Shown piece by piece: positions 21,117 through 21,455 of a DNA stretch of 64,000 bases; positions within the stretch are counted from its first letter, which is position 1; each line of letters starts with the position of its first letter. Source of the DNA: Escherichia phage PinkRuby. The translations under genes and the position numbers were made by a program. Under the pieces are notes generated by a model. That model searched no databases and was not told where the DNA came from. It was given only the letters and a program-made list of their open reading frames with translations. The stretch lies in sequence record PP925839.1; one strand, written 5' to 3'.

Positions 21117-21455
21117 TTAAAAGAATTTAAATTTTTTCTTTGACCTTTTATTAAATGCATCTTGCAGTTGCATTGTAATACATTTTTCTACATGAGGAGC
21201 TAACTCAGCTTTTCTTTCTTGGTCAAGAACAGCAAAGTCCATTACAACCTTTCCATCAACCCAATCCAGTTTAGTTACATACACTATATGTGTAGAACCA
21301 TCTTCTAGTTTAATGACAATCTCCTGGATAACATTTTCCATAGCGGATTTAATTATCTTAAGAGACTCATTAAAAAGACGTTCTTTTCTTTCTTTTTCCC
21401 CCTCCGAAGAGGGGGATTCATCGATAATTTCTAAATCTAAATCATCTTTACTCAT
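21117..21455 (-). CDS. 40: head-assembly protein gp40 (by position and size)
   Basis: track ORF starts with GTG at 21473; ATG at 21455 overlaps uvsX stop. Confidence 0.55.
   Translation of the reverse strand: MSKDDLDLEIIDESPSSEGEKERKERLFNESLKIIKSAMENVIQEIVIKLEDGSTHIVYVTKLDWVDGKVVMDFAVLDQERKAELAPHVEKCITMQLQDAFNKRSKKKFKFF
21393..21412 (-). other. GC-rich tetraloop hairpin inside the 5' end of gene 40
   Basis: CCCCCTC-cgaa-GAGGGGG, about 40 nt downstream of uvsX stop. Confidence 0.6.

Follow-up and report, generated by a model that had tools for sequence, protein, structure and literature searches.

Why should a phage place one of the most stable stem-loops of its AT-rich genome inside the first codons of a gene, a few tens of nucleotides beyond the stop codon of the gene before it? 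The boundary between uvsX and gene 40 of Escherichia phage PinkRuby (sequence record PP925839.1) raises this question. The stretch analysed, referred to here as the window, comprises 64,000 nucleotides with a GC content of 34.5%; 767 phage records match it, the best being Shigella phage Sf24 (98.8% identity), and the phage is a T4-like member of the genus Tequatrovirus.

The genes concerned lie on the minus strand. The beta-glucosyltransferase gene (22707..23555) is followed by uvsX (21448..22629), whose 393-aa product was identified from the open reading frame and the UvsX/recombinase annotation in matching phage records, by gene 40 (21117..21455, with its ATG at 21455), which encodes a head vertex assembly chaperone of 112 aa, and, as the cistron downstream of gene 40, by gene 41 (19680..21107, GTG start), encoding the replicative helicase. 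The start of gene 40 and the stop of uvsX overlap (AUGAGUAA, 21448..21455, minus strand) and leave no intercistronic spacer. The spacer between the beta-glucosyltransferase gene and uvsX (22630..22706) contains a middle-promoter-like arrangement of TGCCTA, 12 nt and TATAAT, with a TG in front; this candidate promoter is the likely source of the uvsX–40–41 transcripts, and PuvsX has been described upstream of uvsX (PMC2988021).

On the plus strand the core inverted repeat reads CCCCCTC-CGAA-GAGGGGG (21398..21415), and an outer U-A pair extends the structure to 21397..21416. In the mRNA, written 5' to 3', the stem-loop is U-CCCCCUC-UUCG-GAGGGGG-A, with the 5' arm at 21416..21409, the loop at 21408..21405 and the 3' arm at 21404..21397. 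The stem consists of eight contiguous pairs, six G-C and two U-A (one of them outermost), and the predicted ΔG is -15.8 kcal/mol. The hairpin starts at position +40 of gene 40, 31 nt past the last base of the uvsX stop codon (21448). It spans codons 14–20, which are translated as S-P-S-S-E-G-E. These codons fall in the N-terminal tail of gp40, the least conserved and length-variable part of the protein in an alignment of homologues, and lie outside the head chaperone domain (Pfam PF11113, matching residues 42–97). Folds of a 352–358-nt segment retain the hairpin as an independent element. A scan of 20900..22000 against Rfam at a permissive E-value gave chance-level hits only, none of them at the hairpin.

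An earlier note, made from the sequence alone, had pointed out an inverted repeat at this boundary, and the repeat is indeed there. Its placement at 21393-21412 was off by about 4 nt, and the stem, described as seven base pairs of G and C, contains six G-C pairs and one U-A pair besides the outer U-A; a purely G/C stem is ruled out, as no stem of 6 bp or more in the window is built of G and C alone. The CGAA tetraloop that it named is the plus-strand reading; transcription of these minus-strand genes yields a UUCG loop on a C-G closing pair, and this extra-stable C(UUCG)G motif had gone unnoticed. The position inside the gene 40 coding sequence was given correctly, with a distance to the uvsX stop of about 40 nt where 31 nt is found. 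The great stability claimed for an AT-rich genome is borne out by the predicted energy, the third most favourable among compact hairpins on the mRNA strand of the 64-kb window. The note had also suggested looking for the element in T4 gene 40, and T4 carries the identical 20 nt (NC_000866, 22329..22348, complement); the window phage is distinguished from T4 by a 6-nt indel immediately before the hairpin and, immediately after it, by AAAAAG in place of AAGAAG.

Several observations indicate that the hairpin is more than an accident of composition or coding. On the mRNA strand of the 64 kb, 11 compact hairpins of -13 kcal/mol or lower were observed, as against 0–1 in Markov resamples, and the next-best local hairpin in gene 40 reaches -7.1 kcal/mol. 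When codons 2–41 of gene 40 were recoded synonymously, the native fold was more stable than all 200 of 200 recodings, while a control segment of the same gene (codons 50–89) was unremarkable. The same test at 12 Tevenvirinae loci with the uvsX–40 junction gave a native fold that beats 184–200 of 200 recodings at every one of the 12, and the control segment showed no such excess of stability at nine of them. The hairpin is spelled with rare codons: CCC accounts for 2.6% of Pro codons, GGG for 6.1% of Gly, TCC and TCG for 4.9% and 5.0% of Ser, and GAG for 16% of Glu. Palindromes come easily to the peptide ESPSSEGE, about 7% of whose spellings, weighted by codon usage, give at least seven pairs in the native register. 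This is the point in favour of the reading that the palindrome has no function in RNA and is a by-product of the gp40 peptide, or else an element of the DNA. Given pairing, however, the native spelling places C-G at both of the wobble-wobble pairs, for which the probability is about 1e-4, and the rare codons are those that maximise G-C pairs. The comparison with other phages, to which we now turn, makes this reading hardly credible.

The comparison set comprised the uvsX–40–41 junctions of 16 annotated phages of different genera and 35 contigs from IMG/VR; the latter were found with a profile built from a subset of the gp40 homologues, as all 16 share no sufficiently conserved segment. All sampled Tevenvirinae loci with the uvsX–40 junction have a G/C-rich stem-loop 30–60 nt past the uvsX stop, early in gene 40, and the distance from the gene 40 start codon to the hairpin varies from 39 to about 60 nt. 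At least nine different stems occur in at least ten genera, and they differ in sequence, in loop and in the order of the arms. The Tequatrovirus form, CCCCCUC-UUCG-GAGGGGG, becomes CCCCUUC-UUCG-GAAGGGG in Mosigvirus, where a C-G pair is replaced by U-A through two synonymous changes (CCC to CCU and GAG to GAA), and one Mosigvirus variant has the loop UUUG. Karamvirus and Moonvirus keep the Tequatrovirus arms around UCAG or UAAG (CCCCCUC-UCAG or UAAG-GAGGGGG), while Jiaodavirus has UCUCCCUC-GGAA-GAGGGAGA and Marfavirus AAGCUCCCCUU-GAAG-AAGGGGAGUUU. The arms are swapped in Gaprivervirus (UGCGGAGGGAGC-UAAG-GCUCCUUCUGUA, purine arm first), in Dhakavirus, which shares GAGGGUC-CUAGU-GACCCUC with Mosugukvirus, and in Tegunavirus (GAGGCUCC-GAAA-GGAGCUUC). 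Relatives of Dhakavirus and Mosugukvirus carry GAGGGCC...GGCCCUC as well as the U.G intermediate GAGGGUC...GGCCCUC. A change from U-A to C-G by way of U.G was observed in L021, L048 and L047. Two further IMG/VR contigs, L060 and L054, have GAGGGUCA-CUA-UGACCCUC and GGAAUCCUC-UGAU-GAGGAUUCC, respectively.

The encoded peptides differ accordingly (SPSSEGE, TPSQEGE, SPSEEGD, APLEEGE, AEGAKAPS, EGPSDPR, EAPKGAS and ESSDEDS), and the only feature common to them is richness in P, S, G, E and A. In a comparison anchored on the loop, all 119 of 119 core pairs (seven pairs in 17 variants) are canonical, with three to four pair types at most positions and 50–75% canonical pairs in shifted registers, a circular count, as folding was used to select the hairpins. 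The loop anchor was used since MAFFT alignment across genera mis-registers the arm-swapped hairpins. The evidence that escapes this circularity is the synonymous-recoding test together with the compensatory changes within alignable lineages. In three lineages the sense strand owes to its G.U pairs an advantage in stability over its complement, of 9.8, 4.5 and 3.8 kcal/mol, and the stable loop motifs UUCG, UACG and GAAA are all read on the sense strand; the constraint is therefore better placed at the level of RNA than of DNA. A stem that is always kept over a peptide that is not conserved, in a region outside the Pfam domain, likewise speaks against a by-product of gp40 coding.

The edges of this family bear on what the hairpin is for. 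In three more distant relatives the uvsX–40 junction has a spacer, and the hairpin lies in it, upstream of the gene 40 ribosome-binding site: AAAGGGGC-UACG-UGCCCCUUUUU in Krischvirus and GGGGCG-UAA-UGCCCCUUUUUU in JC221, both classical intrinsic terminators with a U-tract, and AGCCCGG-GAAA-CCGGGCUUU in Gualtarvirus. Two Acinetobacter phages have a gene other than uvsX before gene 40, and there the gp40 N-tail shows no excess of structure (z ~0). That this gene might be a diverged UvsX was tested and ruled out, and uvsX was not located elsewhere in the two genomes. These cases suggest that the hairpin is tied to adjacency with uvsX, the counter-examples being few and phylogenetically clustered. 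Aeromonas phage AP1, however, has no uvsX upstream and nevertheless an intergenic hairpin before gene 40, so a link specific to uvsX, as opposed to one with whatever cistron boundary lies upstream, is suggestive only.

The earlier note had offered three functions: terminating or attenuating uvsX transcripts, a processing site, and modulation of gene 40 translation. The same relatives weigh against the last of these, which turns out to be the least supported. The stem might slow or limit newly started ribosomes, or it might aid re-initiation at the overlapping AUG by keeping 30S subunits released at the uvsX stop from sliding further downstream. The location 40 nt into a gene whose start overlaps the uvsX stop invites such a reading, as does the Shine-Dalgarno-like 3' arm, GGAGGGGG; gp40 is moreover a head-assembly protein, for which an early need is not expected. 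However, the stem lies outside the footprint of the initiating ribosome (to about +19), neither the start nor the ribosome-binding site is sequestered, and elongating ribosomes unwind stems of this kind. The variable distance to the start codon is a further difficulty, and because the equivalent hairpin of the distant relatives stands upstream of the ribosome-binding site, control of translation is not what has been conserved; we regard it as very unlikely to be the function here. A separate candidate, a stabilising role at the 5' end of late transcripts of gene 40, was abandoned: a search of the mRNA strand from the hairpin to mid-uvsX for TATAAATA, allowing up to one mismatch, found no late promoter nearer than 22062.

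The distant relatives also raise the possibility that the hairpin ends transcription, the first function that the earlier note had proposed. Directly 3' of the stem, in the position that the U-tract of an intrinsic terminator would take, lies a purine-rich tract (AAAAGAAAGAAAAGAAC, 21380..21396, minus strand); the sequence after the stem is AAAAAGAAAG, its tail also being given as AAAAAGAAAGAA and AAAAAGAAAGAAAAG. A U-tract is absent here and in all the coding-embedded versions compared, and a consensus terminator scan of the locus reports no terminator at the hairpin. In T4 RNA-seq data at 5 min post infection (PMC6024815, supplement 1) uvsX has a read density of about 46 reads/nt, compared with 40 in gene 40 and 43 in gene 41; over six condition means the 41/uvsX ratio is 0.88–1.06 and the 40/uvsX ratio 0.77–0.88, values that are per-gene rather than per-base, that come from T4 and not from the window phage, and in which internal promoters could refill gene 41. 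Strong attenuation into genes 40 and 41 by the hairpin, in a normal host at 5 min, is not supported. At this time few T4 molecules can end at the hairpin, and a benefit to the uvsX mRNA is invisible in steady-state counts. With no U-tract and no drop in density from uvsX to gene 41, the hairpin is not an efficient terminator.

A weaker version of the same idea deserves more attention. The hairpin could be a factor-modulated terminator or pause site: RNA polymerase would pause there or release a fraction of uvsX transcripts, as efficiently as Rho, Nus factors or a phage protein allow, and genes 40 and 41 would be attenuated only under certain conditions. More than 120 unrelated viral contigs contain the Tequatrovirus 18-mer letter for letter, and in 98 of 121 occurrences (about 80%) the stem is followed within 9 nt by at least five T, as in apparent intrinsic terminators; the stem in gene 40 can thus be seen as a generic terminator stem minus its U-tract. 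The hairpin-plus-U terminators at the uvsX–40 junction of distant relatives point in the same direction, as does the dependence on the rho allele of the amount of T4 RNA ending before gene 41, reported in PMC12152347. Against this stand the purine tract and the flat RNA-seq density of T4 across the site. The sequence downstream of the hairpin is rich in A and G, and inspection by eye reveals no evident C-rich, unstructured Rho-loading segment immediately beyond it. Later work, set out in PMC2988021 and PMC12152347, argues that the effects of rho and GoF are post-transcriptional. On balance a weak terminator or pause appears unlikely.

More direct information comes from T4. Hinton 1989 (J Biol Chem 264:14432 and 14440), in the summary given by Kim et al. 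2025 (PMC12152347), found an in vivo RNA 3' end directly after a stem-loop in a 358-nt segment before gene 41. By the same account this 3' end is more abundant in rho(nusD) hosts, the level of gene 41 mRNA depends on RNA that extends beyond the 3'-end site, and the suppressor GoF(D25Y) restores RNA reaching into gene 41. The 358-nt segment is further described there as conferring an instability on RNA that GoF(D25Y) relieves, and as rendering a reporter RNA responsive to GoF(D25Y), with a longer half-life that does not depend on Hfq. The effects of rho and GoF are now viewed as post-transcriptional, by way of protection from a putative nuclease, and not as anti-termination (PMC2988021). With its beginning 4 nt ahead of the gene 40 ATG, the segment takes in the uvsX stop, that ATG and the hairpin, and no other stem-loop in it comes near the hairpin in stability (-15.8 vs -7.1 kcal/mol). 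The stem-loop of Fig. 5B of PMC12152347 is probably this hairpin, CCCCCUCUUCGGAGGGGG: the locus is the same, T4 has the identical 20 nt, and the segment has no other strong stem-loop. A literature search for a Term-seq or cappable-seq map of T4 3' ends found none. The 3' ends given by S1 nuclease or reverse transcriptase beside so stable a hairpin could be partly artefactual.

The hairpin also belongs to a set within the window. The minus (mRNA) strand has 14 copies of the motif CTTCGG, 10 of which close stems of 6–9 bp; the plus strand has nine, none with a stem of more than 2 bp. Nine of the 10 C(UUCG)G hairpins are situated at the stop codon of the upstream reading frame or 0–6 nt after it, and the gene 40 hairpin is the only one inside a gene. 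Hairpins of this sort, with or without a U-tract, stand at many cistron boundaries of the window, a distribution that would also suit a local folding insulator, that is, a structure that folds at once and autonomously and so keeps the 3' region of uvsX and the starts of genes 40 and 41 from long-range pairing, with no part in forming 3' ends. Nucleation of RNA folding was the role originally suggested for CUUCGG hairpins, according to the historical account in PMC4371310, and insulation is compatible with the flat RNA-seq profile. It leaves the reported 3' end beside the stem-loop unexplained, however, and no competing long-range pairing was found in the 352–358-nt folds; we consider an insulator quite improbable.

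The reading that we prefer, with a probability of roughly 0.55, is that the stem-loop is a displaced intercistronic boundary hairpin of the C(UUCG)G class, which defines or protects the 3' ends of the uvsX message. T4-type phages put very stable stem-loops right behind the stops of numerous early and middle genes. Where uvsX and gene 40 overlap and there is no spacer, the stem-loop would have moved into the first tolerant stretch downstream, namely the variable N-terminal tail of gp40. It would fold some 31 nt behind a ribosome terminating at the uvsX stop, which is possible because this distance exceeds the ribosome footprint, and since the hairpin starts at +40 the initiation of gene 40 would be undisturbed. 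In a normal host most transcripts would continue into genes 40 and 41. When the downstream 40–41 RNA, which would be poorly protected, is lost through cutting or premature release, the hairpin would mark the site at which RNA 3' ends accumulate: 3'-to-5' exonucleases may trim back to the stem and stall there, leaving a capped, longer-lived uvsX message. We infer that such 3' ends may arise from exonuclease stalling rather than from termination, given the missing U-tract, the absence of a step in coverage, the post-transcriptional phenotypes of rho and GoF, and the effect of the 358-nt segment on reporter stability.

Of the functions that had been proposed from the sequence, then, the general idea of an element that acts in the RNA at the end of uvsX finds support, while efficient termination or attenuation of uvsX transcripts does not. 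The former is backed by compensatory change across genera, by the way the hairpin follows the uvsX–40 junction, by the terminators of distant relatives and by the reported 3' end.

The element as such is already known, since publications describe both the class of T4 hairpins (1988) and a 3' end next to a stem-loop upstream of gene 41 (1989, 2025), and the T4 sequence is identical. What may be new, as far as comparison of sequences can tell, is the breadth of the structural conservation, over at least ten genera, with swapped arms and a coding tail that appears to follow the RNA. The correspondence to the intergenic terminators of distant relatives may be new as well. A more far-reaching proposal can be put forward tentatively, and we would rate it as somewhat doubtful: that the sequence of the gp40 N-tail is dictated by an RNA hairpin, intergenic in distant T4-like phages and in-frame and rebuilt several times in Tevenvirinae, with the peptide following, and that host Rho and phage GoF act through the same hairpin, in cis, in setting the amount of gene 41 message that survives.

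The interest of the locus lies in an old puzzle. The hairpin adjoins the point at which T4 RNA ends accumulate when expression of the replicative helicase fails in rho(nusD) hosts, and the rho(nusD)/gene 41 problem dates from the 1980s, with termination and RNA decay as competing mechanisms. Because the hairpin is under strong selection at the level of RNA and can be mutated synonymously, it lends itself to a clean separation of the two models. It also illustrates neatly how RNA structure can shape a coding sequence, and is not a new kind of element.

Among known systems the nearest is the C(UUCG)G class of T4 itself, CUUCGG hairpins having first been described in T4 mRNA by Tuerk et al. 1988, according to the history given in PMC4371310. 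Members of the class are marked by unusually high measured thermal stability and by blocking reverse transcriptase; for the gene 40 hairpin the stability is a predicted one. The gene 40 hairpin shares with this class the mRNA-strand CUUCGG closing a G/C-rich stem, the complementary arms, here in eight contiguous pairs, and the phage group. It differs in location: the other nine of the window are intercistronic, whereas this one is translated, in codons 14–20 of gene 40, 31 nt past a stop codon. Intrinsic terminators resemble it in the G/C-rich stem and the stable tetraloop, in the same 18-mer flanked by T-runs elsewhere and in the true terminators at the uvsX–40 junction of distant T4-like phages, but here a purine tract takes the place of the U-tract and, in T4 RNA-seq, the downstream RNA is not reduced.

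A third comparison is with intercistronic hairpins that stabilise an upstream message by blocking exonucleases, such as the REP elements in malE-malF and the hairpins in the puf operon of Rhodobacter. A stabiliser of this type is expected to make the upstream segment outlive the downstream one, in a manner dependent on the stem and on PNPase, RNase II or RNase R. The likeness consists in a stable stem-loop close behind the end of the upstream cistron, 30–60 nt past the uvsX stop in at least ten genera, in 3' ends reported at the base of the stem (in T4, for what is probably this hairpin), and in downstream RNA that is less stable under some conditions. From its sequence features the hairpin fits this group of exonuclease-blocking stabilisers; it differs from them in sitting within the downstream coding sequence and not in a spacer.

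The C(UUCG)G stem-loop of gene 40 is accompanied by nine further hairpins of the same type in the window, with stems of 6-9 bp, all on the transcribed (minus) strand, at 55519-55536, 51937-51956, 38579-38594, 36208-36227, 34938-34957, 30230-30245, 28284-28301, 15184-15205 and 4328-4345. When both strands were compared, the plus strand contained no C(UUCG)G hairpin with such stems. The stop codon of an upstream ORF lies at, or no more than 6 nt before, every one of the nine. Because a T-run follows only three of them (55519, 51937 and 15184), the majority, like the gene 40 hairpin, do not qualify as classical terminators.

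Among all compact hairpins that the window has on its mRNA strand, those at 40601-40626 (-18.7 kcal/mol) and 40523-40548 (-16.6 kcal/mol) are the most stable. Both are minus-strand structures with 11-bp stems and tetraloops, located within, or close to the end of, an open reading frame of 156 residues (40191..40661), and the former is followed by TTTTCG. A hairpin in the coding sequence of beta-glucosyltransferase (23491-23518, minus strand, -14.2 kcal/mol) is flagged as terminator-like by a consensus terminator scan.

Immediately upstream of the gene 40 hairpin, at window positions 21423-21446 (gene 40 codons 4-11), the window phage has one 6-nt GAT-YTA (Asp-Leu) unit fewer than T4 and most Tequatrovirus records, so that the N-terminal repeat reads DLDL rather than DLDLDL and the hairpin lies 31 nt past the uvsX stop, as opposed to 37 nt otherwise. 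In the collected junction locus L011 / L042 (IMGVR_UViG_2974573174_000001), the C-run of the hairpin at the start of gene 40 is CCCC, compared with CCCCC in close relatives; being one C short breaks the gene 40 frame and weakens the stem, and is due either to an error in sequencing the homopolymer or to a genuine frameshift at the hairpin. In Citrobacter phage CkP1 (MW239124, locus L013, positions 665-760), the deposited start of gene 40 is an internal ATG 3' of the hairpin, which consequently appears intergenic; as it does in related phages, the open frame reaches upstream as far as the stop codon of uvsX.

Codons 50-89 of gene 40 are also over-structured in L013 and in the junction loci L014 and L021, which represent three genera: only 0-10 of 200 synonymous recodings were as stable as the native segment. 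The same test gave no excess structure for these codons in the window phage and T4.

Two palindromic elements on the minus strand (19642-19669 and 51599-51626; GTTTACAA...GACTATGKTATAGTAGTC), approximately 80% identical to each other, form 11-bp hairpins of -13 and -15 kcal/mol. Each overlaps a promoter-like -35/-10 pair, after which AGGAG and an ATG follow, and one of the two is directly 3' of the gene 41 stop. In sequence, these elements look like T4-type early promoters.

The gap between beta-glucosyltransferase and uvsX is only 77 nt (22630-22706) and carries a middle-promoter-like arrangement, TGCCTA-12 nt-TATAAT with an upstream TG. In T4, by contrast, the homing-endonuclease gene segA is situated between these two genes.
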